From positions 5,437 through 69,436 of the forward strand of contig CAVVXE010000004.1 of the NCBI GenBank assembly GCA_963752165.1: a stretch of 64,000 nt of DNA. Reading direction: 5' to 3'. This document shows, piece by piece, positions 24,726 to 54,208 of this stretch. The number at the start of each line of letters is the position of its first letter. Within the stretch, counting starts at the first letter, position 1. The notes beneath the pieces are model-generated. The model made no database searches, was not told where the DNA came from, and saw only the letters and a program-made list of their open reading frames with translations. Source of the DNA: an uncultured Flavobacteriaceae bacterium. GTDB lineage: Bacteria; Bacteroidota; Bacteroidia; Flavobacteriales; Flavobacteriaceae. The position numbers and the translations under genes were made by a program.

Positions 24726-24898
24726 ATTAATAGCCATGGAAAGGGGCTCTTCCGTTTGACCATTCCAGCCTGGACCGTTTTAGGATAATGGGGAATTTTT
24801 AGAATTTGGATCTGGGGAAGCGCTGAATTATCGCCTTTAAATTTTGGTGTTCACTATCGAAGCCACAACCATATTATTTTATAAAGGAAACACCAAAG

Positions 24899-26440: not shown

Positions 26441-26500
26441 GGGTTCGGGATGAAGGTTAGCAATGCATATGGTAAAGCAGCTCCTGTGACTACATGCTTT

Positions 26501-33726: not shown

Positions 33727-33969
33727 TTAATCCGATGGCGTTTTTTTCTTTTTTCGATTTCTTATGAATGCGAATGATAGTAGTAATCCGATCAGTACAA
33801 AAATTGAATAGAAAGATTGCCCGGTAAATTGAATCTTTGTCGCTGACCATTCAAAAGATTCGGAGCTACCTTCACTTGCTATTATTTCAATTCCATCCAG
33901 TGTAATGGCCACTGCCACTGCGATAAGGATAAGGAAGATTATTTTCAAAAGTGGATTCGGGTTGTTCAC
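33727..33969 (-). CDS. small two-TM membrane protein
   Basis: 80-aa ORF with two hydrophobic helices and a basic C-terminal tail. It is the last unit of the minus-strand run. Confidence 0.45.
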   Translation of the reverse strand: MNNPNPLLKIIFLILIAVAVAITLDGIEIIASEGSSESFEWSATKIQFTGQSFYSIFVLIGLLLSFAFIRNRKKKKTPSD

Positions 33970-34007
33970 GTTTTAATGTACTTTATATAATGTTAGCGTA
34001 TACCTCT

Positions 34008-35288
34008 CTATTTAGTTGGCTTAATTATTTTCCCGCCTTTCATTACGAATGCTACCCGGGTTAATTCGGAGATATCATCAAGAGGGTTTTTCTTTGTGGC
34101 TATAATATCTGCCAATTTACCAACCTTAATGCTTCCAATTTCGTTATCCATCATAAGTAACGTTGCATTTACCTTAGTGCCCGCCAGTATTGCCTGGAGA
34201 GGGGTCATTCCTATTTCAGTAAGTAACTGGAATTCCTTACCAGCAAAATTAGGGGGGAATCCAACATTGTCTGAACCTACCCCTACTTTTACCCCTCTTT
34301 TTATTGCTTTCTCATACATCTTCCAGGAAGCCTCGCGGTGCTTAATTGTTAATTCATACATTTTTGCCTGCGCCTTGCTGTTCTTCCAGGTTTCGAGTCC
34401 ATATTCACTTACACACAAAGTAGGGATGAGATATGCATCATGCACTAAAAACAGGTCAATACTTTCATCATTAAGGAAGGTGCCATGTTCTATGGATCTC
34501 GCCCCAAACGTAATGGCTTTATTGATGCCTTCAGTAGCATGGGCGTGCGCCATGACAGGAACACCCCTTCTTTTTGCTTCCTCCATAGCAGCAATAATTT
34601 CTTCATCGCTAAAGTGAACATTTTGCGGATTGTCCCCTTCAGACATAAAAGCACCGGTAATTAAAAGCTTGATCCAGTCGCTTCCAAATTTTATTTCTTT
34701 CCTAATAGCCTTTTGAATTTCATCTTTACCATTAACGACCAGCCCATCAGCAATAACGGATTGTTCAGGTGCTATAAAATTGATATCGCCTCCTCCGCCT
34801 GTAACGGATAAATAATGCCCTGCACCAAATATTCTCGGGCCATCAAACAGACCGGTGTTTATAGCATCCCTAATTTCAAAATGGGCATATTGTGTATCGG
34901 CATCACCGGCTACCCGTATTGTCGTCCAACCTTCGTTAAGCCAATCCTGAACTACTTTTAACCCCCTGAGTGCATTAAAGGCAGATGATCCTTTTATATG
35001 ATTTACCTGGTAATCGTCTCCATATATTAAGGGATGCACATGTGCATCAATTAATCCGGGCAGCACTGTATATTCTGTTAAATCTATTATTTTATGATCT
35101 GATTTTATAAGATCTCTGCTGCCAATTTGTACGATTCGTTCTTTATCGATGATCACTACCATATCCGTATAAACCTTATCATCTTCAGCTGTGATCAGCT
35201 TGCCACAAATAATGGCGGTTTTATCCTGGGCAGTAAGCGCAAGGGAAAACATCATTATCATAAGTGTAGATACCAATACTTTTTTCAT
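34008..35288 (-). CDS. amidohydrolase-family metallohydrolase (Xaa-Pro dipeptidase / imidazolonepropionase-like)
   Basis: 426 aa with a signal peptide, PGLIDAHVHP metal motif, VMAHAHA and a C-terminal GSIKVGKLADIIA motif. Confidence 0.8.
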   Translation of the reverse strand: MKKVLVSTLMIMMFSLALTAQDKTAIICGKLITAEDDKVYTDMVVIIDKERIVQIGSRDLIKSDHKIIDLTEYTVLPGLIDAHVHPLIYGDDYQVNHIKGSSAFNALRGLKVVQDWLNEGWTTIRVAGDADTQYAHFEIRDAINTGLFDGPRIFGAGHYLSVTGGGGDINFIAPEQSVIADGLVVNGKDEIQKAIRKEIKFGSDWIKLLITGAFMSEGDNPQNVHFSDEEIIAAMEEAKRRGVPVMAHAHATEGINKAITFGARSIEHGTFLNDESIDLFLVHDAYLIPTLCVSEYGLETWKNSKAQAKMYELTIKHREASWKMYEKAIKRGVKVGVGSDNVGFPPNFAGKEFQLLTEIGMTPLQAILAGTKVNATLLMMDNEIGSIKVGKLADIIATKKNPLDDISELTRVAFVMKGGKIIKPTK

Positions 35289-35576
35289 TTTTTATCTTTT
35301 AATTTTAGGTTGAAAGGTACGGTCTCGTATAACCGTGAGCCACGGGTTTTAAGTTACTAATTTTCGGTTTAGCACTGATGTTAGCAATTTCAAGTGGATC
35401 GGGATGAGCGCTAACAGTTTTCGCACGTTTAGCAGCGGCTTTAGACGTATGTATCCGACTAACAGGAATGGATACCCGGACGTTCATTTGCTATTCACAG
35501 AGCACCGAACCCGCTATTAAATGTACATGTTGTTATGCGTTGTAAAAAATTAACTATTCCAAGGACCCTATTATTT

Positions 35577-36116
35577 TCAATTAAAAAGTACTCTGGGTGG
35601 CTCCCAGGTGATAGGGTCGCCTACAACGCCATGAGCAGGACTAACTACTTCCATCCAATGTGGCGTCACTTTAATTAAGGCAAAATCTTCCGACTTGTTT
35701 GGATAGAACGCTTCCCACGCTACTTTCCATCTCTTTTCTTTTTCTTCAGGACTAGTTACTATTTCAGCTTCACCGTGAATGGTGACATATCCCGAACCAT
35801 CATTTGCTAAATAATATAGCGTTACACTTGGATTTTTTTTGATTTGATAGACCTTTCTGCTTTTTGGGTTTGTTCCAAACCACACGGTAAAATCGATTTC
35901 AGGAGCAAAGGGGTCCATTGTTCTTACCCTGGGATGACCTTCCTGATCTATGGTAATGAGTGCACACGTCTTGGCAGAAGTCATTATTTCTTTAGCCGCA
36001 TTGGTCAATTTCTGGTGCAGTGAATCTAACGGCACCCTATTTTGAGAGAATCCCACAGAAGCGAGTAAAAGAAAAAGTGCGAAAATTGCGCAGCTCGCTG
36101 TATTGATTTTTTTCAT
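35577..36116 (-). CDS. pyridoxamine 5'-phosphate oxidase-fold protein (general stress protein 26-like), exported
   Basis: Start preferred at MKKINTASCAIFALFLLLASVGFSQ (36116). GHPRVRTMDP...FGTNPKSRKVYQIKKNPSVTLYY is the PNPOx-like pattern. Confidence 0.7.
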   Translation of the reverse strand: MKKINTASCAIFALFLLLASVGFSQNRVPLDSLHQKLTNAAKEIMTSAKTCALITIDQEGHPRVRTMDPFAPEIDFTVWFGTNPKSRKVYQIKKNPSVTLYYLANDGSGYVTIHGEAEIVTSPEEKEKRWKVAWEAFYPNKSEDFALIKVTPHWMEVVSPAHGVVGDPITWEPPRVLFN

Positions 36117-36140
36117 TTTGATATTTTGCAATAATAGCCC

Positions 36141-36242
36141 TCGGCATTCAACCATTGAAGCCGGTTTTAGGTCTATTTAAATGTAGGAAATTTCAGGGTA
36201 GTTCTAAAGTAGTTATGAATTAAAGTCGTTGTTGTGCTTTCG
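36141..36242 (-). repeat. intergenic repeat member, duplicated with the adjacent gene end at 46480-46575
   Basis: cattcaaccattgaagccggttttaggtctatttaaatgtaggaaatttcagggtagttctaaagtagttatgaattaaagtcgttgttgtgc. Confidence 0.75.
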
Positions 36243-37001
36243 TTATTTTTGATCATATAAAATTTCCAATTCTTTTTCAATCTCGTTCACAACGACCTCT
36301 GATTTCTTAATCAATTCCTTTAAGCTATTAATATTCCAATTTCTATTTGAAATGATTTCGGCGTTAATACTTTTAAACGTATCGTCCTTAATCAGCTCAT
36401 TATAATTGAAAGGTTTTGTTACTTCAATATATCCTGAAATGCTATCTTGTAAAAAATACCTTCTAAAGTGGTTGACATGATAAGGATAAGAAATATTTTG
36501 CTGCAGGTTATTTGCCCAAACCTCATTTTCTTCTTTAATAATCAAAAATTCATTTTCGAACAAAACGCTCAAGTTTTGTCGTAAGCTATCATTGGTAATT
36601 AAATCGATTCCCTTGGATTTTAAATAGGCATAACCACCCGAAATGGGATTTGAAGAAACAGTCCAAAAATAGGTGCTAAATGGTTTGAGGAGAATATCGT
36701 CAAAAGGCCTTTTGTTATCTAAATAATCTAGTATCAATACATTATATGCCAAATATTCCTTTTCTGATTCAATTGTTCTTCCAAAGGATTTAATGCTACC
36801 TCTAATATTTGCCTTTAATTCATTGAGTAATTCAATTTCAACAAGCTTGGATGCTTTTTCATTATTTAAATTATTCAGGTATAAAGCGAGCAGAATTCCA
36901 ATGACAATTAGGATTACTTCGCCAGTGGCATACAGCAGGTATTTACTGAATTTATTTTCGGTTAATAGCTTTTGACGAATTCGTCCAAAAAATTTAATCA
37001 T
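36243..37001 (-). CDS. DUF6090-type membrane-anchored protein, paralog 4
   Basis: MIKFFGRIRQKLLTENKFSKYLLYATGEVILIVIGILLALYLNN. Its 3' ~210 nt plus downstream repeat are duplicated at 46505-46786. Confidence 0.75.
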   Translation of the reverse strand: MIKFFGRIRQKLLTENKFSKYLLYATGEVILIVIGILLALYLNNLNNEKASKLVEIELLNELKANIRGSIKSFGRTIESEKEYLAYNVLILDYLDNKRPFDDILLKPFSTYFWTVSSNPISGGYAYLKSKGIDLITNDSLRQNLSVLFENEFLIIKEENEVWANNLQQNISYPYHVNHFRRYFLQDSISGYIEVTKPFNYNELIKDDTFKSINAEIISNRNWNINSLKELIKKSEVVVNEIEKELEILYDQK

Positions 37002-37300
37002 AATTTCAATATTTTAAAGCCAGCGCACTACCTGGCACTTCACTATCAAAAGTCTGTCAGACTTTTGATATCCGTTCGGCCCTCAAAAGCGTTTTATCAT
37101 TGGTTATTAGTTGTTCCCGATACCCAGCCCGATCCCGATAGCTATCGGGATCGGTATTGGAAAGCAGAAGAAATTTGCGCTGGCAAAGCGATCCCTGAAC
37201 GTTCAGCCATAGAAGCCAGTTTTAGTTTTTATTAAAAATAGGGAATTTTGAATTAGTGCTGAAGTAGCGCTGAATGACAGTTATTGTTGGCATTTCGTTG
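37002..37300 (-). repeat. composite intergenic repeat region with two perfect palindromes
   Basis: 25-nt palindrome atcaaaagtctgtcagacttttgat (37045-37069) and TCCCGATAGCTATCGGGA (37133-37150). Then gcgctggcaaagcgatccctgaacgttcagccatagaagccagttttagtttttattaaaaatagggaattttgaattag...gttattgttggc. Confidence 0.75.
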
Positions 37301-37373
37301 TTTTTCCGGTTTTATAACAATCCCGGTTATATTCAGATTTCAAGTGTACTGATAAATTAGCTTTGTTTGATTA

Positions 37374-37934
37374 TTATTGAAACAAGACATACCTGGGTGG
37401 CTTTAAACCATTCAGTCGCATAGAAACAAGCATCTGTCCTCTGTGGTGCGTTATATGGTCTGCAAGTAATAATAGAATTTGTCTTTTTGTTCTGTCCGAC
37501 CCAAAATAGTCGAGTCTTTCCTCAAGTTTATTGAGGTCAAAATTTGAGATAAATGCTATTGTTTTGTCAAATGTCCTGTCGATTGTGGCAATCATTTCTT
37601 TTTTTGATTTATTGTCGACCTTCAGTTCCGTGTCGGTATTCCAATCTCTGGCTTCACGGCCGCCCATTAGTGATTGACTATGCCAATCCATCGCCCAGCC
37701 AATATGCATTAAATTTTCTGCAAAACTCATTGATTCTGGCGTTGCTTTGAAATCATATTGGTCCTCCGGCATCGTTTCCGCCACAAGAATTAAATACTTT
37801 TTTGAATTTTCCAATCGCTCCAAATAGTCCTTGATAAAGTCATTTTCCTGGGCGAATAGAGGCGATGCGTAGGAAGAAGACAATAGTATGGAGGTCAGTA
37901 TTAATATGTGTTTTAGGGTTCTCATCTGGTTCAT
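37374..37934 (-). CDS. DinB-family protein, exported
   Basis: Start preferred at MNQMRTLKH (37934). C-terminal LADHITHHRGQMLVSMRLNG is the DinB signature. Confidence 0.75.
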   Translation of the reverse strand: MNQMRTLKHILILTSILLSSSYASPLFAQENDFIKDYLERLENSKKYLILVAETMPEDQYDFKATPESMSFAENLMHIGWAMDWHSQSLMGGREARDWNTDTELKVDNKSKKEMIATIDRTFDKTIAFISNFDLNKLEERLDYFGSDRTKRQILLLLADHITHHRGQMLVSMRLNGLKPPRYVLFQ

Positions 37935-37969
37935 TTTTAAATTTCCGTTTCGTTTTTTTACAATGAATA

Positions 37970-38098
37970 CCAATGGTCCTGGCCATGATTTGGCGGACCC
38001 TGACCTTTTGACCATTCAAGCCGCTTCTAGTTTTAATTAAAAATAGGAAATCTGAATTAGTTGATAGGCAGTACTATAGTATAGGGGTTGTTAGCCCA
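37970..38098 (-). repeat. intergenic repeat member
   Basis: ccaatggtcctggccatgatttggcggaccctgaccttttgaccattcaagccgcttctagttttaattaaaaataggaaatctgaattagttgataggcag...ggggttgttagc. Confidence 0.75.
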
Positions 38099-38105
38099 CA
38101 GTGCT

Positions 38106-38558
38106 TCATTTCTCCTCCAGGGCAACGAAAAGTTGTGATTTTATTTTCCATATTCCCGACTCTTTGGTCCACATGGCTGAATAATTACCATTGATTATAG
38201 CCTTGTTACTTTTCTCCGGGTCATACCCATTCCAAATGCCGCTTTCCCAGGCCAAACCTCTTTTCGAATTCACTATAATTTCCCTGGTATCACGTATCCA
38301 ATACATCTTGCTTTTCCCACCGTCTAAAATATATCTTTTCAATGCCTCTTTTCCGCATAACAAAGTTCCATTTCCAGTAGTTGTTACTACATCATCTGTC
38401 AAATATGAAAGTACTTCTTCGTTGTCATACGATTTAAGTGCTGCATTTGACGCATTTCTGATCCTTGATATTTGCGCTGTATCGGTTTGAGAAAACAGCT
38501 CCGATGTAAAAATGAGGGTACATACTACTGCAAAAAGGATATGTTTAGTTTTTTTCAT
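38106..38558 (-). CDS. SnoaL/DUF4440-like (NTF2-fold) protein, exported
   Basis: 150 aa with a signal peptide. Pattern ...YLTDDVVTTTGNGTLLCGKEALKRY...NYSAMWTKESGIWKIKSQLF. Confidence 0.65.
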   Translation of the reverse strand: MKKTKHILFAVVCTLIFTSELFSQTDTAQISRIRNASNAALKSYDNEEVLSYLTDDVVTTTGNGTLLCGKEALKRYILDGGKSKMYWIRDTREIIVNSKRGLAWESGIWNGYDPEKSNKAIINGNYSAMWTKESGIWKIKSQLFVALEEK

Positions 38559-38606
38559 TTGTTATCCATATTTATAATTCCCATTCGATTTGATGTTCCG
38601 GTATTT

Positions 38607-38735
38607 GCCCTAACGCTTTCTGGCTATTATTCCCGCCAGAGGTGGGCAAGGTGGCACGCCTGCCTGCCTTTGGCAGGTGTTAGGGGCGAAGCTAGCGGAG
38701 GATCTAACAGCTTTGTCGTTGGAAATTCACGTCGG
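38607..38735 (-). repeat. intergenic repeat member containing a 78-nt unit bounded by CCCTAAC / GTTAGGG
   Basis: gCCCTAACgctttctggctattattcccgccagaggtgggcaaggtggcacgcctgcctgcctttggcaggtGTTAGGGgcgaagctagcggaggatctaacagctttgtcgttgg. Confidence 0.8.
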
Positions 38736-38966
38736 CTAAGTCAGCTTTGACCGTTCACTGCTCATATTTTAAATTGAATTCTTGTATTCTAAACTACACA
38801 AATCATTTGTTTTAATGGACCTAATCTGGCTACCTGCTATTAGGGCATACGCACCACTGCTGAATAAAAAAGCATTCAATACCTGCTGCATCGCATCACT
38901 TCTTTATATGACAGGAACAAATTAATATAGCAGTTTTTCTGGCAAAGGCTGTTTCTCAATTCTTTA

Positions 38967-39320
38967 TTACTTGGCAGCTGCACTTTTGCTGATTGCCCCA
39001 AGGGCAATGAATAAAATGGCTGTAAGAGGCCAAATATAAAGTAACGGGAAACCAAGTACGCTATAATTGATTATTGCCAAGACAAAATAAGCAACCAAAG
39101 CGATAATACCTCCGGTTAATTCCCATTTCCATGCAAGCCCAAGCCCGGTCAGACCTAATCCTGCTAGTGACAATTGTAAAATGGCGTTGTTGGTAAGGGG
39201 TCCTGCGGTTTCTTCATCAATTAAAGTCTCACCGATAAACATAAATAAAGAGAATACGATTATCAGACCGCTTAATACCCGCAGGATCCACCGAAATGTA
39301 TTGTATTGTTTTGTGCTCAT
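38967..39320 (-). CDS. small polytopic membrane protein
   Basis: 117-aa ORF with three or four hydrophobic helices; no recognised family. Confidence 0.5.
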   Translation of the reverse strand: MSTKQYNTFRWILRVLSGLIIVFSLFMFIGETLIDEETAGPLTNNAILQLSLAGLGLTGLGLAWKWELTGGIIALVAYFVLAIINYSVLGFPLLYIWPLTAILFIALGAISKSAAAK

Positions 39321-39623
39321 ATTTTTTCTTTTCCAATAGTTGTCTTAGCTACAGGGTAATTCAGTTTCCCATTTTTTATTGCAAAGTGGTTGCTGCACTC
39401 CACAGTGTTGCTTTTTATTATTTTAGGTGGTCAAACCCTAATGTTATTCCGAACCAAACTTCTTTTTAATCAAACGCATAATGGTCTCTTATGCCTTTCA
39501 GATATTGGCTTTAAGGTACGAATTTTCGGTTTGGCAAAGTCATGAGTATTTTCGTGAATTGGAACGCTGTTCCGGCCATAAGGAACAGCAAAGCCACTTG
39601 TGGGTATACCATGTTGCAGCACC

Positions 39624-40196
39624 TTATTTTTTATTTTTATAAAGTTCAATTGCTTTTAAATAGTTTCTTCCACCAGTCGCTGTTTGGTCGTGTAGGAATC
39701 CATTCAATTCAGGATGATTTTCATCAATCCAGGTTACAAGTCCATCCCTGTTTTTGACAAATGTCGAATCATTGAAAATAATGTATTCTGTTGTTTCAAT
39801 ACTGGTTATTTTATCATGATCAAATCTTATAACCTGATTAGTGACGATCGGTTCTTCGTGCAGAAATAAGATCCTTTTATCGATTTTTGAAATCTTCGCT
39901 TTGATAATTTTATACTCTTGCTCAATTTGAAGGATTTTGTAGGTTGGCTCAAATACAGCATCCCATTTCAACCATTCAACATATTCTTTCAGAGAAAATG
40001 TCTGTTCATAGCCATATTCGGTTTCCTTTGTCACAAGGCTATCGGTCAATAAAAGAGCTATTTTTGTAATATCGGCATTATCAAGAGCCGCATAATATTT
40101 TTTAGCAATTCCCAATTTGTCAATTTCCTGATCAGAATTTTTACAGGAAATGAGTCCGATTAGTAACAGTAATGGTAGCATTACAGTTTTTTTCAT
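39624..40196 (-). CDS. hypothetical lipoprotein, possibly NTF2-like fold
   Basis: Start preferred at MKKTVMLPLLLLIGLISC (40196). AKKYYAALDNADITKIALLLTDSL resembles SnoaL-like N-termini. Confidence 0.5.
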   Translation of the reverse strand: MKKTVMLPLLLLIGLISCKNSDQEIDKLGIAKKYYAALDNADITKIALLLTDSLVTKETEYGYEQTFSLKEYVEWLKWDAVFEPTYKILQIEQEYKIIKAKISKIDKRILFLHEEPIVTNQVIRFDHDKITSIETTEYIIFNDSTFVKNRDGLVTWIDENHPELNGFLHDQTATGGRNYLKAIELYKNKK

Positions 40197-40220
40197 GCGT
40201 AATTGGTTTTGCGTAATGTG

Positions 40221-40284
40221 CAATAACGGTAGGTATATGAGCCGTCCCGATAGCTATCGGGATAATGGCTTATAAACCTTATTG
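40221..40284 (-). repeat. 64-nt imperfect palindrome with an 18-bp perfect core TCCCGATAGCTATCGGGA
   Basis: caataacggtaggtatatgagccgTCCCGATAGCTATCGGGAtaatggcttataaaccttattg. The arms pair over about 30 nt with a few bulges. It lies between the S9 peptidase stop and the next start. Confidence 0.75.
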
Positions 40285-40293
40285 TGTGCAGTA

Positions 40294-42303
40294 TTACTCT
40301 TCAATGAGTTCGTCTATAAACTGCATCATTGCAGAAAAAAGATAAATACCCTCTAGAGGACTTTGGCCATCTCCCGTATGTCCTGCACTGGAAGCTTCTA
40401 TATACCATAAGTCACCTCCGTTTTCTTCGATTGTCTTAACAATTTTTCTCGCCGATTCAACTGACACTCTTGCATCTCTTGCACCTTGATACATGAATAA
40501 GGGTTTGGTTATATATTGCGCATTTGTAACAGGAGAAACTTGTCTGATGGCGGCATTTATTTCCGGGTTAGTCCTCTCGCCAATTTCAGCTTCATCCCAT
40601 CCAACAAGCAGTCCAGCTTCCCTTTGGGCGTCAGGATCTAACGTAGCTCCATTTATACTAATTCCTCCTAGAAATAAATCAGGATATTTAGCCAATGATG
40701 CCATGGTCATAAATCCTCCCCAGGAAACTCCCCCTACTACTATTTTTTCAGGGTCAAGGTCTTTCTGGGTTTTTATCCAACTGACAAGGGCTTTTACATC
40801 TTCAATTTGTTTGCCTCTTTTATTTTGGTCATCCGACTTTTCAAACGAAACCCCATATCCTGTAGATCCCCTGTAATTGGGCGTAATTACAGCATATTTG
40901 TTTTGTGTCATCTGAGCTGCCAGCGTGCTATAGGGTTCATCATAGGCATCCGGTCCTCCATGAAACATGACCAGTACAGGGTATTTTTTGCCTGAAGTTT
41001 GTTTTGGCTTATAGATATATGAGTGAATGCCTTCCATCACCCCAATAATGGAGTCTGTGGTCGGATACGTAAATTCTTCAAAAGTAATTTCAGGATTAGT
41101 TGGAGCCGAAGGATCAGGATCAATTACTTTGAAAGAAGCACTTTCAATATCCAACAAGCACATTTCGGTACTATTTAATGAGTACTTTGAGAAGTAGACT
41201 TTATTCTTCTTCGGGTGAACAAGGAAGGGGTAAATGTCATATGTTACCTGTACCGGGTTTTTATTATCATCATACAGGGTGATATTCTTTTTTTCAATTC
41301 GGTCATAGGCGAGTAGTTTACCATACCCTTTGTTCAAATAATAATATACAAGGTACCGCTGATCAGCAGTTAGTGCTATATGGCCAATATCTCCTTCAAG
41401 CTCAGGAGACCGTTGGGTCAGCATTTTTGTATTTTTATTATACTCCCAGATTACTGAAAATTCATTGGAAAGACCAGTCGTGCCTGTACGCACATAGTAG
41501 GCAATAGAATCACTTTTGGTATTTAGAAAACGCTGATGCCGTGAATACCAGGTAAATTGAGTTCCATGAAAATATTTTGATTGGCCTTCCTCTTCAAATT
41601 CCAGTTCAGCAACACCGGTTTCAAGGTTTACGCGATATAGCTTTCCATCCTGTTCGCTAAACGATTGCAGTATATAGGCATATTCCATTTTAGGGTCAAA
41701 TCCCTGCACCTCAACCAGCCCCTGGAATGTACACAGTGCGCTGGGAGCACTGTCATTTTCTAATGACATTTTGTATAAGGTGTTTATTGATGTTTGATGG
41801 TCTTCATTATAGACCAGTAAGATTGAATTATCGGGTGAAATGCCAAAACCGGAAACTGATGAATTACCAACAAATATCGTATCGGTTTTCCCTGTTTGAA
41901 GATTGAGTCTCAATAAGTCTCTATCCTCTTCAGCATTTTTTACATTTAAATAAAGAAATGCCCCGTCATTCATTCTTCGGACCGAACTGCCGTAAGCGGG
42001 ATAGGGAAGTATGCCCGGAAAGGGGGAAATTGAGTCTGTTTCTGAATCTGCAACGAAGGAGCCATTAGGCTTTCTGAACAGCAAATTCTGATTATTGTCG
42101 AAACCCACCATTATTGAATAATTAGGCGCGGCAGAAAAAGATAAGATAGATATTGCACTGCCTATTCCAATTTTTGGAACATTTTTCGTTGTCAATGATC
42201 CAGGCTTGGGTACACCGATAATTAGAAGTACAATTACAACTAATCCTATCAATCCAATGATTGATAGAAAAATCCACTTTATAACCCTTAGGAGTTTTTT
42301 CAT
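40294..42303 (-). CDS. S9-family prolyl oligopeptidase / dipeptidyl aminopeptidase-like serine peptidase
   Basis: Start preferred at MKKLLRVIKW (42303). A beta-propeller-like N-terminal half is followed by an alpha/beta hydrolase half with VGGVSWGGFMT (GxSxG) and C-terminal SAGHTG. Confidence 0.8.
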   Translation of the reverse strand: MKKLLRVIKWIFLSIIGLIGLVVIVLLIIGVPKPGSLTTKNVPKIGIGSAISILSFSAAPNYSIMVGFDNNQNLLFRKPNGSFVADSETDSISPFPGILPYPAYGSSVRRMNDGAFLYLNVKNAEEDRDLLRLNLQTGKTDTIFVGNSSVSGFGISPDNSILLVYNEDHQTSINTLYKMSLENDSAPSALCTFQGLVEVQGFDPKMEYAYILQSFSEQDGKLYRVNLETGVAELEFEEEGQSKYFHGTQFTWYSRHQRFLNTKSDSIAYYVRTGTTGLSNEFSVIWEYNKNTKMLTQRSPELEGDIGHIALTADQRYLVYYYLNKGYGKLLAYDRIEKKNITLYDDNKNPVQVTYDIYPFLVHPKKNKVYFSKYSLNSTEMCLLDIESASFKVIDPDPSAPTNPEITFEEFTYPTTDSIIGVMEGIHSYIYKPKQTSGKKYPVLVMFHGGPDAYDEPYSTLAAQMTQNKYAVITPNYRGSTGYGVSFEKSDDQNKRGKQIEDVKALVSWIKTQKDLDPEKIVVGGVSWGGFMTMASLAKYPDLFLGGISINGATLDPDAQREAGLLVGWDEAEIGERTNPEINAAIRQVSPVTNAQYITKPLFMYQGARDARVSVESARKIVKTIEENGGDLWYIEASSAGHTGDGQSPLEGIYLFSAMMQFIDELIEE

Positions 42304-42329
42304 AATAAGACATCTGTTACCAATTGTAA

Positions 42330-42486
42330 ACAACGGTCCCGGCTATGATTATGCTTTGATTGTAGCGAGCCTGCCTACCTTTTGCAGGTCCTGGCCTTTC
42401 CACCATTTTTCCGCTTCCAGTTTTATTTAAAAATAGGAAATTTTGAATTAGGTGAAGGGCAGCGCTACATGATAGGCGTTGTTGAA
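42330..42486 (-). repeat. mosaic intergenic repeat, near-twin of 46422-46575
   Basis: acaacggtcccggc...gcctgcctaccttttgcaggtcctggcctttccaccatttttccgcttccagttttatttaaaaataggaaattttgaattaggtgaagggcagcgctacatgataggcgttgttgaa. Confidence 0.8.
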
Positions 42487-42494
42487 CGCAGGTT

Positions 42495-42617
42495 GTTAAT
42501 TCAGTGTTAGTTTCTTTTTCTTTCCGATAAATACATACAGAAGTGAGCCTAAAATCGGAAGAAGTATAACTGCCAAACAAAAAGTCCCAATGAAAAATCT
42601 GTAATTACTTTATCCAT
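42495..42617 (-). pseudogene. tiny PLDc_N-like membrane ORF, apparently frameshifted
   Basis: MDKVITDFSLGLFVW... in one frame is followed by AVILLPILGSLLYVFIGKKKKLTLN in the next. LPILGSLLYVFIGKK is the motif of PLD-nuclease-N-terminal small proteins. T5 runs lie nearby. Confidence 0.3.
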
Positions 42618-42655
42618 AATAGTTGGTTCAATAAATTTTATTAAGTTTAATTTCG

Positions 42656-43927
42656 TTATTCCTGTGTGGATAAAAGTCCTAAACGTTCTCCCATCAATAG
42701 GTGTTTGTATGAATTCCCATCATCTTCCTTTGGAGCGTCTAACGTAAACGTAACCCCATCCTGAAAGATCATTATAAAATCTGATCCACCAAATGCAAAA
42801 TGGCCAAGCATATCGCCTTTTTTTACTTTTGTGCCTAATGTAACGTTTTTTTCAAAGTTGACCGAGCCAACTACTGCCATTCCTATTGGCATTAGAGCAA
42901 CCAATCCAAATTCATCGGTTTCCAAAATTACACATCCTCTTGTCTCAACAGACTGCCATCCGGTTTTGGCTGATGGGTTAAATGCATACCGGTTGTTCTC
43001 CTGGTCCCACCATAGTTGGCCACCCGTAGGATTGATGCCTTGAATTATCCTGGCTTCTTTTATAGTTCCGCTTAGCGGAAAGTGGTACCTGTGATAGTCG
43101 TTTACATTTAAAAAGGAATGGGTAAATGTACCGTTGGCAAATGCGTCTTTGTACGGACTGTCCTCACCAATAAGTTTTGAGATGGATTTTAGCGTAGCCG
43201 ACTTTACCGGCACTCCGTCTTTTTCCATCAGGTTGGAGTTATCGTCTATTTTCCAAACACCCATAGGTTGTGAATCGGCATATGAAACTACTACCGCGTC
43301 CAGGTCAGGACTTGCAATGGGGCGCATGTCTGGAGATTTTAAATATCTGGCAAAGAACTGATTAAAGCTTTTCCAGTTAGAAGGATCTTCATACCAGCCA
43401 TTTTGCAATCCAAAAGCAGGATCGTTTAACGCCATTTGGTAATATTCTTCATTCCATGAATCTACTGTGTCGAGAAAAGCACCCCATGATTTGTTAAAGC
43501 TTATAAGCCATTTTGCAAATGGTTCATAATACTGCAAAGAATTATTCACCAATCCTTTTCCTTCAAGTTCTGGCAATGGTTGATCAATTAGGAAATAAAA
43601 CGCACAAAACCCTTGAAATATATGATCAAATATTTCCGGATATTCTCCCTTTTTAACAACTGCCCATGGCATGGTTGCTTCGGTCCAAGTTATAAACTCA
43701 TAATACTCCTCAAGGGTTTGAGCAGGATTCATATTACTGTTTGAATTGATTTGCTTTGCTTTGTCTAAAGAAGACTGCAGCATTGATTTTAGTTCTGGGT
43801 TACTTTCCACCAAGGCAATTAATTCTTTTGTAGCTTCACCGTATTTAACTTCTTTTTTGGTAGTATCACAGGAAACTATACTGAAAACTATTAAGAATAT
43901 GAGTATAAGGTTCTGAATGTGTTTCAT
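42656..43927 (-). CDS. phosphatidylserine-decarboxylase-family (pyruvoyl-type) protein with lipoprotein signal
   Basis: 423 aa with a lipobox FSIVSCD and C-terminal GDMLGHFAFGGSDFIMIF, which resembles the self-cleaving G-S motif region of PSD-like proenzymes. Confidence 0.65.
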   Translation of the reverse strand: MKHIQNLILIFLIVFSIVSCDTTKKEVKYGEATKELIALVESNPELKSMLQSSLDKAKQINSNSNMNPAQTLEEYYEFITWTEATMPWAVVKKGEYPEIFDHIFQGFCAFYFLIDQPLPELEGKGLVNNSLQYYEPFAKWLISFNKSWGAFLDTVDSWNEEYYQMALNDPAFGLQNGWYEDPSNWKSFNQFFARYLKSPDMRPIASPDLDAVVVSYADSQPMGVWKIDDNSNLMEKDGVPVKSATLKSISKLIGEDSPYKDAFANGTFTHSFLNVNDYHRYHFPLSGTIKEARIIQGINPTGGQLWWDQENNRYAFNPSAKTGWQSVETRGCVILETDEFGLVALMPIGMAVVGSVNFEKNVTLGTKVKKGDMLGHFAFGGSDFIMIFQDGVTFTLDAPKEDDGNSYKHLLMGERLGLLSTQE

Positions 43928-43960
43928 TTATGAATATTTTTTTATTTTATTTAATGAATG

Positions 43961-44172
43961 TCAACGGTCCTGACTATGTTTCTCGCCAGAGGCGGGCAAG
44001 GCGGCGAAGGTTAGGGGCGAAGCTAGTGCAGGATCTAACGGTCTTGTTGTTCGAAATTCGCGCTGTCAAAGCGATCCTTGACCTTTCAACCATTGAAGCC
44101 AAGTATAGTTTTATTTAAAAATAGGAATTTTTGAATTAGTTGGAAGGAAGCGTTGAATTTTAGCCGTTGTTG
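43961..44172 (-). repeat. long composite intergenic repeat (~210 nt, four modules)
   Basis: tcaacggtcctgac...cgccagaggcgggcaagg...gttaggggcgaagctagtgcaggatctaac...gcgctgtcaaagcgatccttgacctttcaaccattgaagcc...ttttatttaaaaataggaatttttgaattagttggaaggaagcgttgaattt. It extends into the last codons of ORF 44160..44576. Confidence 0.8.
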
Positions 44173-44576
44173 GCATTAGTATTTGATTTTAGAATTTCCT
44201 GTATTTGATCAATATGATCAGTTCTTAGATTCGTTAATTTGAAATGAAATATTGATCCATCCTTTCGAAATATTTCTAAACGTTCATTCTTAATAACAAA
44301 TGAAGCTATTTTATTAAATGAGATGGTTTTTGATACCAGTGAATTAAGCTTTATGGTTATTCCTTTTTTATTCCAACCTATATAATTCCTAAAAAAGAAT
44401 TGCTTTCCGATAAAAATAATGGATAATCCAAAACCTATAATTCCGGAGACCGCCTGAAGAGTAGCATCTCGGTTATTGAAAGATGCGTAAATGTAAATAA
44501 TCAGGAATATAACCATTGGAATAGCCAAGACCTTATTTTTACGACTATCCAGTTTATCAAAGTATACTCTTTTCAT
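44160..44576 (-). CDS. hypothetical membrane protein (two TM helices plus small soluble domain)
   Basis: 138-aa ORF, 1 nt from the upstream 60-aa ORF. Its last codons (..ANNG stop) lie inside the intergenic repeat. Confidence 0.5.
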   Translation of the reverse strand: MKRVYFDKLDSRKNKVLAIPMVIFLIIYIYASFNNRDATLQAVSGIIGFGLSIIFIGKQFFFRNYIGWNKKGITIKLNSLVSKTISFNKIASFVIKNERLEIFRKDGSIFHFKLTNLRTDHIDQIQEILKSNTNANNG

Positions 44577-44577
44577 T

Positions 44578-44760
44578 TCATATTATTAATTTAATTAATC
44601 TGTAAATATAGAAAATGCCAATCAAGGACATTATTCCGCAAACCCAGTATTCAGCTTTCGAATAGTAATTTATCCCTCCAATTATTCCGAAAGCAATCCA
44701 TAAGAGGTTTGCTACAATTTCACCATTGTGCGATGTGTTCTTCTTATCTTGTTCAGTCAT
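44578..44760 (-). CDS. small two-TM membrane protein
   Basis: 60-aa ORF forming a two-gene unit with 44160..44576. Confidence 0.4.
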   Translation of the reverse strand: MTEQDKKNTSHNGEIVANLLWIAFGIIGGINYYSKAEYWVCGIMSLIGIFYIYRLIKLII

Positions 44761-44767
44761 ATTATTA

Positions 44768-44875
44768 CCAACGGTCCTGGCTGTTTCGCTTGGAGGACAG
44801 TTCCTTGTTTTATTTAAAAATAGGAATATTTGAATTAGTTGGAAGGAAGCGTTGAATTATAAGCGTTGTTGCATT
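44768..44875 (-). repeat. intergenic repeat member (~105 nt)
   Basis: ccaacggtcctggc...gttttatttaaaaataggaatatttgaattagttggaaggaagcgttgaattataagcgttgttgc. Confidence 0.8.
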
Positions 44876-44881
44876 AATTTC

Positions 44882-46072
44882 TTATCTCTTTTCCATATAA
44901 CTTTTTACCAAATCCATTAAAGCCCTTCCGTGAACATTTTTAGCCATAACCACGCCTTTATCATCAAGAATGAAGTTGGCCGGAATGGTCCGAACACGGA
45001 TTTTTTTTAAGAAAGGTGCATCATCTCCTTGCAAATCTGATGCTTGTAACCAGCGATTTGCCCCATCGCGCTCTACAGCTGCTCTCCAGGCAGACTCATC
45101 ACTTTCCAGACCATAAGCAACAATTTGTAAACCCTGGTCATGATATTCATCCCAAATAGGGACTAAAACCTCGCGGTTTTCCTTTCGGCAAGGAGCACAC
45201 CAGGATGCCCACAAGTCTATGATAGTGAGCTTGCTGCCTAATTGGTCTTTAAGAGAAAGTGTATCCTTTGTTAGCATGGGAAACGTGAGATTTGGAAATT
45301 CATCTCCTACTAAAACAGGTAAATTAGCGGGATCACTTTCTTTACAAAGCTGTTTTACCCATGGATGATCTGGTTGTTTTTCCGTCCATTTATTGCATTG
45401 ACTCACCAAAAATTCAGGCACACGCTCATAATAATTCTCCGGACTTACCCATCGTAATGCCACCAATGCCGGCATAAGGTAGGGTGTGCTATTTGCAAAC
45501 TTTATCAGCTCGGTCTGATATTGTAAGATAGCCTGTTCCTTTTCCATCAATTCACTGCCATCTTCTAATTCCCAATGCTTTCCTGCAAGATAGGTTTGGT
45601 ACGCTTTCTCCCTGATATCCCTTAGGTCTAACAAAGCATTATTAATTTCTGAAGGGTGTTCAATTGAAAAACTTTTTTGAAATTCATTCCATTTAGCAGT
45701 GATTTGAAGAGGCTCTCCTGATTGCCATAGAATTGGCATAAAGTTAGACATCATTGGATTATCCGTTTGTAAATAATTAGGAGCCTTTCCGGATAGCTGT
45801 ATGGCTACTTCCAGCAATACAGGTTCTTTAGTTTTTGGCAAGTTGTTGAACTCAAAGCTACCATCAGAATTTACTACAGCAGAATCTATGACTTTTCCAA
45901 AATATGAAGCAGCTACCTCCCGTAAGGTTTCAGGTTCAATTAGATACATCTTTATGTCTTCCTTTTCTGTACCTTCTATTCTTCCTGCTATATCGGCAGG
46001 AGAATGACAAGCTATTTGAGTTAGGGCCATGAAGATAAGACCGGTAATATTTTTTAAAGGAGTAGTTCTCAT
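44882..46072 (-). CDS. TlpA-family thiol-disulfide oxidoreductase with N-terminal extension
   Basis: Thioredoxin-fold motif LTIIDLWASWCAPCRKE in the C-terminal third of a 396-aa exported protein. Confidence 0.8.
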   Translation of the reverse strand: MRTTPLKNITGLIFMALTQIACHSPADIAGRIEGTEKEDIKMYLIEPETLREVAASYFGKVIDSAVVNSDGSFEFNNLPKTKEPVLLEVAIQLSGKAPNYLQTDNPMMSNFMPILWQSGEPLQITAKWNEFQKSFSIEHPSEINNALLDLRDIREKAYQTYLAGKHWELEDGSELMEKEQAILQYQTELIKFANSTPYLMPALVALRWVSPENYYERVPEFLVSQCNKWTEKQPDHPWVKQLCKESDPANLPVLVGDEFPNLTFPMLTKDTLSLKDQLGSKLTIIDLWASWCAPCRKENREVLVPIWDEYHDQGLQIVAYGLESDESAWRAAVERDGANRWLQASDLQGDDAPFLKKIRVRTIPANFILDDKGVVMAKNVHGRALMDLVKSYMEKR

Positions 46073-46087
46073 TTTGTCAAATTAATG

Positions 46088-46152
46088 CCAACGGTCCTGG
46101 CAATGATTCCCGCCAGAGGCGAGGAAGGCAGCGATGAATTATAGGCGTTGAT
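46088..46152 (-). repeat. short (65 nt) member of the intergenic repeat family
   Basis: ccaacggtcctggcaatgattcccgccagaggcgaggaaggcagcgatgaattataggcgttgat. It has terminal CAACG/CGTTG inverted ends and an inner CCCGCC-aga-GGCG(A)GG stem. Confidence 0.75.
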
Positions 46153-46205
46153 AGTATATGTTTTTGATTTATTGAAAATCGAGTGGTTTTAATGATTCCT
46201 TGAAC

Positions 46206-46403
46206 TTACTCTTTTAGTTGCTTTTCAGATTTTCTTTTGATTTCCTGACGAATAAAACTACCCAAACTTATAAAGGATATCACTAGAAGAAAACCGTACT
46301 CTTTCAATGGATTATCTGGCCATAAATCGATTAGAGTAACAATTAGGGCGACTGAATTTACGATAATTAATATCCAAAGTAATAGTTTAACGATACGATT
46401 CAT
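46206..46403 (-). CDS. small two-TM membrane protein
   Basis: 65-aa ORF with two hydrophobic helices, flanked on both sides by the repeat family. Confidence 0.4.
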   Translation of the reverse strand: MNRIVKLLLWILIIVNSVALIVTLIDLWPDNPLKEYGFLLVISFISLGSFIRQEIKRKSEKQLKE

Positions 46404-46421
46404 TTTTCTTTTTTAAATATA

Positions 46422-46575
46422 CCCTAACGGTCCTGGCTCTGATTATAGCAAGCCTGCCTACCTTTTGCAGGTCCTGGCCTTTCCACCATTTTTCCGCTTC
46501 CAGTTTTATTTAAAAATAGGAAATTTCAGGGTAGTTCTAAAGTAGTTATGAATTAAAGTCGTTGTTGCGCTTTCG
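46422..46575 (-). repeat. mosaic intergenic repeat (GGACCGTT end + 75-nt module + TTTAAATAAAAC module)
   Basis: The + strand reads accctaacggtcctggc...agcctgcctaccttttgcaggtcctggcctttccaccatttttccgcttccagttttatttaaaaataggaaattt... The 75-nt core is identical to 42369-42443. Confidence 0.8.
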
Positions 46576-46786
46576 TTATTTTTGATTAATTAAAATTTTC
46601 AATTCTTTTTCCATCTCGTTCACAATGACTTCTGATTTCTTAATCAAGTCCTGTAAGCTGTTAATATTCCAATTTCTATTGGAAATGATTTCGGCGTTAA
46701 TACTTTTAAACGTATCATCCTTAATCAGCTCATTATAATTGAAAGGTGTTGTTACTTCATTATATCCAGAAATGCTATCATTTTAA
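46576..46786 (-). pseudogene. 3' fragment (about 70 codons) of a DUF6090-type gene
   Basis: 46505-46786 aligns by eye (~9 in 10 bases) with 36160-36450, the 3' end of paralog 4 plus its downstream repeat. Homology stops abruptly at ~46786. Confidence 0.7.
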
Positions 46787-46789
46787 ATC

Positions 46790-46963
46790 TTTAGATATAA
46801 GTGGACCACTAGAGGCTAACTAAATAAGCAGATAGCAGAACAACTTCATATCTCTACATTAACCGTTAAGAAACATCTGTCCAATAGCTACAATAAACCC
46901 GAGGTCCGTAATCGTACCTCCATGCTAAATAAAATTCTAAATCAGAATAAATTTACTTTATAA
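46790..46963 (+). pseudogene. remnant of a LuxR-type HTH (response-regulator C-terminal) gene
   Basis: The frame ending at TAA 46961-46963 reads G*LNKQIAEQLHISTLTVKKHLSNSYNKPEVRNRTSMLNKIL. This is the LuxR HTH signature with an in-frame stop and no upstream receiver domain. Confidence 0.55.
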
Positions 46964-47049
46964 TACACCCTTAATACTCCTTTAGTAGTACCGCTCTTTT
47001 TAATTATCCCGTTATCTTTATCAATTATTTAACCAACTGATTTACAGTG

Positions 47050-47292
47050 ATGAATATAACATCCAAAACGGGGTCTATCTATCAAATTAGATTGAATGGG
47101 GAAATCAATACCGCACTCATAAATTTGATTGACAACATGCAGGTAACACAGGAAGCTGATAAAAAAGTCATAAAACTTGTAGGTTGGCTACCAGACCAAT
47201 CTTCATTACTAGGCTTATTAATTAGTTTGAATGAAATTCGTTATGAAATTCTATCAATAGAAATTTTTTCAACTAATGAAGTAACCATATAA
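47050..47292 (+). CDS. small hypothetical protein
   Basis: 80-aa AT-rich ORF immediately upstream of the D-aminoacylase-like gene; no recognised family. Confidence 0.35.
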   Translation: MNITSKTGSIYQIRLNGEINTALINLIDNMQVTQEADKKVIKLVGWLPDQSSLLGLLISLNEIRYEILSIEIFSTNEVTI

Positions 47293-48953: not shown

Positions 48954-48969
48954 TCGTGACAATTACACC

Positions 48970-49006
48970 CAACGGGTTAATAAATAGTTTTTTTATTAAT
49001 CCGTTG
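48970..49006 (+). terminator. AT-rich hairpin after the D-aminoacylase-like gene
   Basis: caacgggttaataaa-tagtttt-tttattaatccgttg has one mismatch and is bounded by ACCCAAC ... GTTGCTG. Confidence 0.5.
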
Positions 49007-49033
49007 CTGTTTAAATGAGTAAATAAAATCAAA

Positions 49034-50785: not shown

Positions 50786-50805
50786 TAGTTAAAAAAACAA
50801 AAATC

Positions 50806-51735: not shown

Positions 51736-51762
51736 GGCAAATAAGATTTTTCATGCATAAGA

Positions 51763-51812
51763 CCTTGGTTGCGACGGGCGGCGCGAAATGGTGCCGCCCA
51801 ACCAAGGCTTTT
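51763..51812 (+). terminator. long GC-rich hairpin between the two beta-lactamase-like genes
   Basis: ccttggttg-cgac-gggcggc...gccgccc-aaccaagg followed by cttttgg. Confidence 0.6.
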
Positions 51813-51861
51813 GGTTCTCATATCAGATAAACTCAATTATTAATATTTAAAAAATAGAATC

Positions 51862-52848: not shown

Positions 52849-52884
52849 AACACATATTTATTTAACTATTAAAAATTAAACATT

Positions 52885-54153: not shown

Positions 54154-54167
54154 TAAATTAGTATAAG

Positions 54168-54208
54168 AAAAGGGCTCTGCCCGTAAAGCAGAGCTCTTTT
54201 AAAATGGA
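54168..54208 (+). terminator. hairpin element copy 1 (terminator-like, repeated three times)
   Basis: gggctctgc-ccgtaaa-gcagagctc followed by ttttaaaa. Related copies lie at 56168-56220 and 57576-57620. Confidence 0.65.

Follow-up and report, generated by a model that had tools for sequence, protein, structure and literature searches.

A probable mobile gene-cassette array with AAC/GTT-ended repeat sites in an uncultured Flavobacteriaceae bacterium

A stretch of 64,000 nucleotides from an uncultured Flavobacteriaceae bacterium (assembly GCA_963752165.1, contig CAVVXE010000004.1, positions 5,437 to 69,436), called the window below, was analysed for a run of unrelated genes separated by repeats with AAC and GTT ends. 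The window is chromosomal, with mnmE, dnaN and gldF/G-type genes at 11-17 kb, and has no tRNA gene. The run, called the array, has 14 open reading frames (ORFs), all on the minus strand between 33727 and 46403, plus a truncated DUF6090 copy upstream; an earlier sequence-only reading had listed the same 14 ORFs and one truncated gene, which we recognise as a DUF6090 3′ fragment (46580..46790, minus strand). Observed here are a repeat family, its orientation, its fold and the co-variation of its stems, the differing neighbourhoods of two of the genes and sequence breaks beside GTT. We consider it probable, with moderate confidence, that the region is a mobile gene-cassette array working like an integron array, with a recombinase acting from elsewhere.

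Read in the coding direction, the array begins with a 65-aa ORF (46206..46403), its first cassette, followed by a TlpA-like thiol-disulfide oxidoreductase ORF (44882..46072; Pfam Redoxin/TlpA), two small ORFs of 60 and 138 aa that lie 1 nt apart and form one unit (44160..44760), a PS-decarboxylase-like (PSD) ORF (42656..43927; PS_Dcarbxylase), an S9 peptidase ORF (40294..42302; Peptidase_S9), a lipoprotein ORF (39624..40195), a membrane-protein ORF (38967..39320; DUF7670), a SnoaL-like ORF (38106..38558; DUF4440), a DinB-family ORF (37374..37934; DinB_2), a DUF6090 ORF (36243..37001; a weak match), a PNPOx-fold ORF with a signal peptide (35577..36116; PNPOx), an amidohydrolase ORF (34008..35288; Amidohydro_1, E = 2.9e-43) and, as the last cassette, an 80-aa small membrane protein (33727..33969; weak DUF4345 match). 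A convergent TPR gene on the plus strand (32147-33721) closes the array. Pfam gave no family for the 138-, 60- and 65-aa ORFs, and for the 199-aa lipoprotein ORF it gave a weak bPH match and nothing else, so that the label NTF2-like that this protein had been given could not be confirmed. Several ORF calls overrun the repeats; the likely starts are at 36116 (PNPOx), 37934 (DinB) and at ATG codons near 42302 (S9 peptidase) and 40195 (lipoprotein), each 20-45 nt past the end of a repeat and each opening a protein with a signal peptide. The gaps between the 14 ORFs, taken from the 33727 end upward, measure 38, 288, 87, 372, 90, 408, 303, 70, 322, 232, 1, 121 and 133 nt (38-408 nt, and one of 1 nt); the sequence alone had led to a proposal of 90-400 nt.

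The gaps hold members of one repeat family, which we call sites. In the coding direction an element opens soon past the stop codon with (G)CCAACAACG and closes with ...GCCAGGACCGTT(G/A), 10-45 nt before the next start. On searching the window with the gap sequences by BLAST, copies were found to be confined to 36.1-46.6 kb, all in gene orientation and with E-values down to 1e-41, and the remainder of the 64-kb window gave chance-level matches alone. A 65-nt module occurs seven times in the gaps, and additional modules are shared in varying combinations. The end motif YYRGRRCCRTT is present 6 times on the minus strand at 37.9-46.4 kb; elsewhere in the window the two strands together hold it twice. 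The sequence-only reading had a repeat in almost every gap, starting within 75 nt of the stop codon and 64-210 nt long. BLAST detects copies in nine gaps, and four others (35289-35576, 39321-39623, 40224-40293 and 33970-34007) hold diverged or other subtypes; one site begins 170 nt past the stop codon, and the measured lengths run from 56 to about 324 nt. Both the AAC and the GTT triplet are present in 7 of 13 minus-strand sites or candidates, the rest having AAG, ATT or GTA variants or having lost one end.

Following the array from its upstream end on the minus strand, the first site is E46 (46420..46570), a chimera whose 5′ part matches E36 and whose 3′ part is 97% identical to E42, with the switch point inside the shared core. 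The short form E46b (46086..46153), 60 nt from AAC to GTT, is the site at whose GTTGGCA the likeness to other TlpA loci begins. E44b (44766..44874) follows TlpA, and E44a (43959..44175) is a composite long form with three CARGACCGTT-like motifs. The long form E42 (42328..42487) has GTTCAACAACGCC at its 5′ end and AGCCGGGACCGTTGTTT at its 3′ end; between it and the PSD-like gene an apparent frameshifted small membrane ORF can be read (42490-42655, minus strand; MDKVITDFSLGLFVWQ... / ...LYVFIGKKKKLTLN). A short hairpin site at 40221..40286 consists of CACAATAAGG, a stem GGTTTATAAGCC / GGCTCATATACC and then ACCGTTATTG. The next is a weak, diverged 'type 2' site (39475..39620; 5′ end GCTGCAAC, 3′ end GAGACCATTATGCG), followed by E38b (38608..38939), about 324 nt long and ending AGCCAGAAAGCGTTAGGG, and E38a (37968..38096), with GGCTAAC at its 5′ end and GGCCAGGACCATTGGTA at its 3′ end. 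Two long forms have decayed 3′ ends: E37 (37010..37292), with two unrelated palindromes nested in its centre, and E36 (36129..36237), with GCACAACAACG at the 5′ end and GGGCTATTATTG at the decayed 3′ end. Next comes another diverged 'type 2' site (35316..35545), which has an inner module in common with the site at 39475-39620 and whose 3′ end ACGGTTATACGAGACCGTACC is a near match to the site that follows PSD in a related locus (L093, described below). A possible remnant CGCTAACATTATATAAAGTACATTAAAAC at 33970..33998 is weak and comes from reading the sequence. Outside the flagged region, a short hairpin site on the plus strand (48966..49009; CACCCAACGGGTTAATAAA, short loop, TTTATTAATCCGTTGCTG) lies between two plus-strand amidohydrolase genes and is co-oriented with them, and decayed copies were found by eye at 24752..24835 (a long form on the minus strand missed by BLAST), 25595-25614 and 26455-26523. 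With the extra site and the decayed copies, the variable region is wider than flagged.

The window's own array looks at least partly fossil, given the chimeric E46, the decayed 3′ ends of E36 and E37, the truncated DUF6090 and the pseudogene scraps at the upstream end. The DUF6090 fragment belongs to a 294-nt duplication (46494-46787 against 36161-36454, 91% identity) that takes in part of a repeat as well as the last 212 nt of the DUF6090 ORF (36243-36454, copied at 46.58-46.79 kb). A perfect palindrome of 18-20 nt, (A)TCCCGATAGCTATCGGGA(T), is nested in two site centres (37132-37151 and 40245-40263) and is unrelated to them; it was also seen in two stretches from other genomes (L035 1220-1913 and L093 528-1411, in the latter within two tRNA pseudo-copies), and it looks like an independent small mobile palindrome. 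Module mosaics, a chimera of two copies with its switch in the shared core, a duplication that includes part of a repeat and a second palindrome nested in two elements all speak for another origin, in which elements like repetitive extragenic palindromic sequences (REP), the bacterial interspersed mosaic elements that they form (BIME) or miniature inverted-repeat transposable elements (MITE) would have spread into accessory gaps, the genes moving by ordinary flux and by homologous recombination that uses the repeats as portable homology, with no cassette-specific recombination. The scattering of single copies at separate places on one 443-kb contig (L023, L035) also favours such an origin. We regard it as unlikely in the light of the gene neighbourhoods and of the orientation and stems of the sites, which are taken up in turn below.

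TlpA homologues of 75-90% identity are found across many Flavobacteriaceae genera, and the gene lies in six different neighbourhoods: the window; L085, where 15 co-directional genes form an array with a ParE toxin pair among them; L086 (Abyssalbus ytuae); L087 and L091 (Gillisia), where TlpA stands alone between molybdopterin-enzyme genes and the nuo operon; L088; and L089 with L090. All six settings have GTTGG[CT]ATTAATTTGACAAA-ATG in common, and directly ahead of the GTT their sequences diverge. When the window is compared with L085, 18 of 20 nt agree past the GTT, and of the 7 nt preceding it about 3 do. The stretch conserved at this break is 7-12 nt, too short for a RecA-type exchange, and a break this sharp speaks against homologous recombination between dispersed repeats. 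In most genomes a second small site accompanies TlpA just upstream; in the window the break falls at the inner site. In L089 direct copies of a third type of site stand on both sides of the TlpA unit, which is what insertion between two sites would leave. The 138-aa ORF after TlpA in the window (44160-44576) has a counterpart after TlpA in L085 (11581-12006) that is 34% identical, while TlpA itself is 90% identical; a greatly differing version of the neighbour thus occupies the equivalent place.

The PSD-like protein is 77-93% identical across genera (Robiginitalea, Muriicola and others) and its gene was found in five neighbourhoods (the window, L092, L093, L094 and L144). Upstream of it the break again lies at ...GACC|GTTG[AG]CATTC in the window, L093 and L144. 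One PSD-like protein, P0150, 82% identical to that of the window, is labelled as coming from a metagenome-assembled genome (MAG) of Balneolaceae, a different phylum-level group, and this is either a binning error or a long-range cassette transfer. In the close relatives L093 and L094, collinear blocks with identities of 99, 95 and 93% are broken up by swapped gene blocks beside sites; in one swap a 186-aa gene and a DUF6090 gene in L093 stand against DUF1801 and ion-channel genes in L094. One break between these two coincides with a GTT, with 2 mismatches over the preceding 12 nt and none over the following 100 nt. A cassette boundary at the GTT of the preceding site is thus borne out for TlpA and PSD, at a resolution that does not separate G|TT from CC|GTT. 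The gene order is not conserved, the neighbourhoods of both genes being different from locus to locus, and the proposal of a cassette array like an attC-site cluster that has no integron-integrase (CALIN), or of a new cassette-type system, gains support from the six and five neighbourhoods with breaks at GTT.

The spread of the sites was followed with a 20-mer of the repeat, scanned against one genome per species, which gave 84 stretches, mostly chance matches. Seven Flavobacteriaceae blocks (Eudoraea and unnamed MAGs) carry the element, always between co-directional genes and in the same orientation, and their neighbouring gaps hold short, diverged versions. Sites are co-oriented with the genes in the arrays of L085, L093 and L144 and less clearly so in L092; AAC/GTT triplets in inverse orientation were also seen in L085, L093 and L144. 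A metagenome sample of 48 stretches, about 18 of them real family members, had family motifs co-oriented in a ratio of 49:9. The scatter in both orientations that would mark REP-like behaviour was not seen: each copy examined points the same way as the genes beside it, which REP/BIME pairs and MITEs do not do. No target-site duplications were seen around the elements, which also speaks against a MITE-like spread, and the specific idea of MITEs with target duplications was rejected. An identification with Xer/dif-type sites was rejected on orientation and layout, all sites being direct repeats with nothing dif-like.

The arrays in other genomes also hold ORF-less units and pairs of ParE and PemK toxin genes (L085 and L093), as integron arrays do, and this speaks against the spread of a palindromic repeat. 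The toxin units are flanked by sites inside the arrays (ParE at L085 3577-4096; L093 2052-2611 and 2870-3389), and ParE and PemK are each paired with a small ORF lying upstream. Chromosomal integrons are known to hold toxin-antitoxin cassettes (PMC13108822). Other mobile elements were met in the same arrays. An IS110-family transposase gene lies inside an array, full length in L094 (7726-8691) and truncated in L093 (8138-8677); IS1111-attC elements are known to target attC sites. In L144 the 3′ end of a site is immediately followed by a group II intron (8515-10400; Rfam RF01999, 109.8 bits, and RF00029, 66.6 bits), which runs in the cassette direction and has a reverse-transcriptase ORF carrying RVT_1 and GIIM. 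Class C group II introns target attC sites as well as terminator hairpins.

The anatomy of the sites is clearest in the clean short forms of 44-78 nt in L085 and L093. These have a box R′′ (consensus TGCCAAC), then AACG, an inner arm GCTATAATTC, a variable centre, an arm GAATCATAGC with one extra base, an unpaired CCAGGAC and a box R′ (GTTGGCA); over all sites the centre varies from about 10 to 250 nt. Folded as single-stranded DNA (ssDNA), the short forms pair end to end with z of -3.0 to -4.5, in agreement with the expectation from the sequence-only reading that the non-coding ('bottom') strand would fold. For the window site 40221-40286 the bottom strand gives -14.5 kcal/mol (z = -4.5), while the short forms of relatives reach z of -4.1, -3.0 and -3.1, the first being L085_2136 (-15.1 kcal/mol). 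Elsewhere in the window the fold is clear for 48966-49009 (the enclosing 68-nt candidate 48945-49012 has z = -4.3), moderate for E42 (-24.0 kcal/mol on the bottom strand, z = -3.1, folded end to end) and E38b (bottom-strand z = -3.0), and absent for E46 (z = 0.1).

The inner arms vary by site type yet remain complementary (GTATATAGCG/CGCCATATAC, AATAAAATCC/GGATTTTATT, GGTTTATAAGCC/GGCTCATATACC, GCCTAAGCGTAATGCGG/CCGCACTACGCTTAGCC). Co-variation was measured by pairing every 5′ half with every 3′ half and comparing cognate with non-cognate duplex energies. For 23 sites on the bottom strand the cognate mean was -7.53 against -5.96 kcal/mol for non-cognate pairs (p ~1e-4); for 17 stem types the two values were -10.96 and -5.90 kcal/mol (sd 0.56, p <= 2e-5), and in 9 of the 17 no other partner paired better than the cognate half. 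The cognate duplex of 40221-40286 (-15.2 kcal/mol) is the best among all partners, and the co-variation holds with the inclusion of sites whose arms lie more than 70-140 nt apart. The site after PSD has compensatory changes, TGTATAACCG/CGGTTATACG in L093 and GTGTATAAGTA/TACTTATACAC in L144. Stems that co-vary between site types point to selection on pairing and not to copy-and-paste of one sequence, which is a further reason to doubt a REP/BIME- or MITE-like origin. The bottom strand is the more stable one in 24 of 33 sites (Wilcoxon p = 0.01), and G.T pairs make up 32 of 391 pairs on the bottom strand and 9 of 312 on the top strand. A stable fold that tolerates G.T pairs on the bottom strand fits a folded non-coding DNA strand and not a sense RNA.

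This bears on the idea of a function in RNA, by which the hairpins would terminate, process or stabilise transcripts or serve as 5′ leaders of the flanking genes, and would look repeated through the reuse of a regulatory module. Their constant position just past a stop and just ahead of the next start, and their fixed orientation relative to the genes, would suit such a role, and class C group II introns are known to insert past terminator-like hairpins (PMC3001079), with a group II intron following a site in L144. The G.T-tolerant pairing is however on the strand complementary to the mRNA, no T runs follow the hairpins, and the 64-kb window has no Rfam match, even at E <= 1. Identity of up to 97% between gaps beside unrelated genes and homologous sites across genera indicate common descent and mobility, and a role in RNA would leave the gene-level breakpoints at sites unexplained. 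We therefore hold this to be a very improbable account, even though the long forms contain a promoter-like stretch. In the coding direction their insert holds TTTA-N19-TA(C/T)(A/T)TTTA (window 44108-44172, 42420-42484 and 46503-46567; L085 4097-4249 and 6653-6822), which by eye resembles the Bacteroidetes promoter consensus TTTG-N19-21-TAnnTTTG. From this resemblance, the insert might drive the next cassette as a promoter.

Several results weigh against the interpretation as a cassette array. Some breakpoints lie off the GTT, as they also would with repeats that merely sit in accessory gaps: one L093/L094 break falls about 7 nt before GTT, the break of block C between the same loci lies just before a site, at or before its 5′ edge, and the likeness of the window past PSD ends at the 5′ edge of the post-PSD site of L093 and L144. 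On sequence comparison the breaks gather at sites, most of them at the 3′ end though with exceptions, so that the earlier statement that similarity stops right past GTT-R-R does not hold for every break. The strand asymmetry is partly compositional, since the bottom strand is favoured by 0.34 kcal/mol in non-cognate pairs too. The outer four R′′/R′ positions pair at chance (Watson-Crick pairs 3.83 of 7 in cognate and 3.78 of 7 in non-cognate combinations; about 1.1 of the 4 outer positions pair), and the bases that do pair extend inward, in the form CAACG(G)/(C)CGTTG. The spacer differs between the two sides, with about 1-4 nt 5′ and 6-7 nt 3′. Long forms carry an unpaired, conserved, AT-rich insert of 65-100 nt (...GAAATTTCCTAYWTTTAAATAAAAC...GGCTTCAATGG...), common to different genera, and several long forms of the window fold no better than shuffles (z 0.1 to -1.9, the latter for the bottom strand of E44a); as ssDNA the whole long elements of the window range from z 0.1 to -3, mostly 0 to -2. 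Model R1, made from four short forms, finds just E46b and E44b (the latter with E = 0.002) in the window at E < 0.01, the long variable centres defeating it. An initial judgement of 'not attC-like' from the folds of whole long forms was dropped after the short forms of relatives revealed the stem and the long forms proved to be insert-bearing. A generic scan for AAC-hairpin-GTT with forced triplet pairing gave 25 matches at z <= -3 window-wide, mostly intragenic, and was rejected as a detector; it carries no strand information, since AAC...GTT is its own reverse complement.

The failure to find a recombinase is the other point that counts against a cassette array, and it favours dispersed repeats. 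No tyrosine recombinase was found in the 64-kb window by Pfam on the 53 larger ORFs, by tblastn with IntI1 or by reading 46.6-47.3 kb, and Pfam on the same ORFs gave no transposase, in particular no Y1 transposase of the REP-associated kind (RAYT). The tblastn search with IntI1 covered all loci besides the window and gave nothing relevant. Read in all six frames, 46.56-47.33 kb, beyond the upstream end where an integrase would be expected, gave no recombinase scrap but a LuxR-type helix-turn-helix fragment, an 81-aa ORF and the DUF6090 fragment only, in line with the earlier remark that no integrase is in sight. No integrase stands at the array heads of L093 (tRNA-Phe beside coaX) or L086 (two tRNAs), and none appeared in the other related genome loci or in the family-positive metagenome contigs. 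The one exception, among the related loci, is in L089, where an integrase of the island type, split, lies 5 kb from TlpA. The single IntI1 match among the metagenome stretches, in L121, was set aside as a chance match on an AT-rich, probably Firmicutes contig. An IntI with the IntI-specific insertion next to an attI at the array head was not found in the window, at the L093 and L086 heads or in the other related loci. Two arrays start right past tRNA genes, that of L086 (4018-4511; Abyssalbus) past two tRNAs downstream of mutS and that of L093 (528-1411) past a tRNA-Phe-like gene and two degenerate copies, beside coaX.

A narrower form of the cassette-array interpretation is that the region is an ordinary integron remnant, i.e. 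a CALIN with true attC sites, which IntegronFinder would score, and a classical IntI elsewhere in the chromosome. The layout indeed parallels the aadA1 attC box for box: GTCTAAC / AATTC / GTTCAAGC / centre / GCTTAACT / CAAGC / GTTAGAT there, and GCCCAAC / AACG / GCTATAAT / centre / ATCATAGC / CCAGGCC / GTTGTGC in L085_2136, with one extra base in the 3′ arm like an extrahelical base. The aadA1 sequence used is matched exactly by 1962 plasmids. CALINs are widespread among bacteria, and integrases of the In0 type, with no attC, were reported from Bacteroidetes (PMC9024848). Yet the outer R-box positions pair at chance, the spacers measure 4 and 7 nt where about 5 and 5 would be normal, the R′ consensus, GTTGGCA, does not fit GTTRRRY, a length of 200-320 nt together with an unpaired conserved insert is uncommon among attC, no IntI was seen in the loci searched, and IntegronFinder surveys give almost no integrons in Bacteroidetes (PMC9024848). 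An ordinary remnant is therefore possible but doubtful in our judgement. With integrons the sites and arrays share the triplets, an inner stem, a bias to the bottom strand, breaks at cassette boundaries and the form of an array; a 7-bp R box and an adjacent IntI are lacking. The sequence-only reading took the inverted ends and variable centres as attC hallmarks, but the sites are not canonical attC. Rfam, which gave no match, contains no attC family; if the sites were accepted as attC, their spacing would stay below 4 kb, the distance within which at least 2 sites are called for. On box layout, pairing and breakpoints the sites are integron-like and possible members of the integron family.

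The mobile cassette array that we favour would work as follows. The unit would usually be one ORF and a recombination site, the site being arranged in the coding direction as (G)CCAAC-AACG shortly past the stop, the inner arm, the centre, the second arm, the unpaired conserved CCAGGAC and then CGTT-GGYA about 10-45 nt ahead of the next start codon. In the cell the bottom strand may fold into an imperfect hairpin, and a site-specific recombinase encoded elsewhere would exchange strands at or just before the 3′ GTT, with the result that cassettes could be excised, inserted and swapped between arrays and between genera. A crossover in the AT-rich core of the long form was rejected, as the breaks in other genomes map to the 3′ end. 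It is conceivable, and we put it forward tentatively, that marine Flavobacteriaceae share a family-wide cassette system of distinct type that follows integron logic but has inward pairing, the CCAGGAC stretch, an insert that is possibly a promoter and a recombinase other than the classical adjacent IntI, possibly not an IntI at all, that would carry highly conserved cassettes such as TlpA and the PSD-like gene from genus to genus; the point on the recombinase would follow from arrays that lie at tRNA genes or among core genes and have no integrase at the head.

Around the array a few further features may be described. DUF6090 paralogues, of about 250 aa and with a membrane helix at the N-terminus, occur in the window at 25634-26440, 30256-30969, 30976-31734 and 36243-37001, besides the fragment at 46580-46790, and recur in or beside arrays elsewhere (L023, L083, L092 and L093); they may simply be a common cassette family. 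At 46820-46960 on the plus strand lies the C-terminal LuxR/GerE helix-turn-helix fragment (LNKQIAEQLHISTLTVKKHLSNSY), its N-terminal part missing, and beside it the 81-aa ORF (47047-47292, plus strand). The two sit precisely where the minus-strand array and a plus-strand gene run diverge. This run (47319-55886) consists of two amidohydrolases and four beta-lactamase-family genes. Near-identical 45-nt stretches near 53693 and 55690 suggest a recent paralogue duplication within it, and the short site at 48966-49009 suggests that the run may be a second, diverging array.

For gene capture and shuffling, integrons are the textbook example. They are found almost only in Proteobacteria and a few other groups (PMC9024848), and surveys of Bacteroidetes give In0 only, plus one complete integron in Salinibacter (PMC9024848), although the phylum is listed among those with some integrons (PMC9668308; PMC2426708). 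Our search of the literature on integrons and CALINs in Flavobacteriaceae found no report of such arrays. If the interpretation as a mobile cassette array is true, a major group of marine polymer-degrading bacteria owns a cassette pool shared across genera such as Robiginitalea, Eudoraea, Gillisia and Abyssalbus, which would explain single secreted or envelope proteins that are 80-90% identical amid wholly different neighbourhoods. There would also be a second, diverged attC-like site type in which the triplets, an inner stem and an unpaired stretch are kept but not the outer R-box pairing, and a comparison with classical attC would show which features recombination needs. This raises the question of which enzyme acts on these sites, and attC models tuned on proteobacterial sites may miss such arrays in metagenomes.

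Among known systems, REP and BIME share with the sites that they are intergenic palindromes, form module mosaics and lie past stops between co-directional genes. REP sequences are however 20-40 nt long, occur in both orientations (alternating in BIMEs) and in high copy chromosome-wide, are associated with RAYT and show no gene-level breakpoints, whereas the sites here are 44-320 nt long and uniform in orientation, and genes move with them. The pdif modules of Acinetobacter plasmids are alike in that single genes or small sets bounded by short sites appear in many contexts with the recombinase encoded elsewhere; a pdif site is double-stranded and 28 bp long, built as XerC-spacer-XerD, and the orientation switches from one site to the next around a module, unlike the direct repeats with hairpin layout seen here. 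From attC the sites differ in that the pairing beside the triplets runs inward and not over the outer RYYYAAC/GTTRRRY, in an unpaired spacer that is asymmetric and conserved in sequence (CCAGGAC), and in the many sites of 120-320 nt with an AT-rich insert conserved across genera; from an integron the arrays differ in having no IntI at either end, two of them beginning at tRNA genes, and in their hosts, a family with essentially no reported integrons. The likeness to an integron array or CALIN is nevertheless extensive: co-directional, unrelated and mostly small genes are each followed by an imperfect-palindrome site with AAC at its 5′ and GTT at its 3′ end; the centre of the site varies, its inner stem has an extra base and its non-coding strand folds better; ORF-less units, toxin-antitoxin cassettes and arrays without a neighbouring integrase occur in both; and in both, mobility is at the level of the gene, with breaks at the 3′ GTT.

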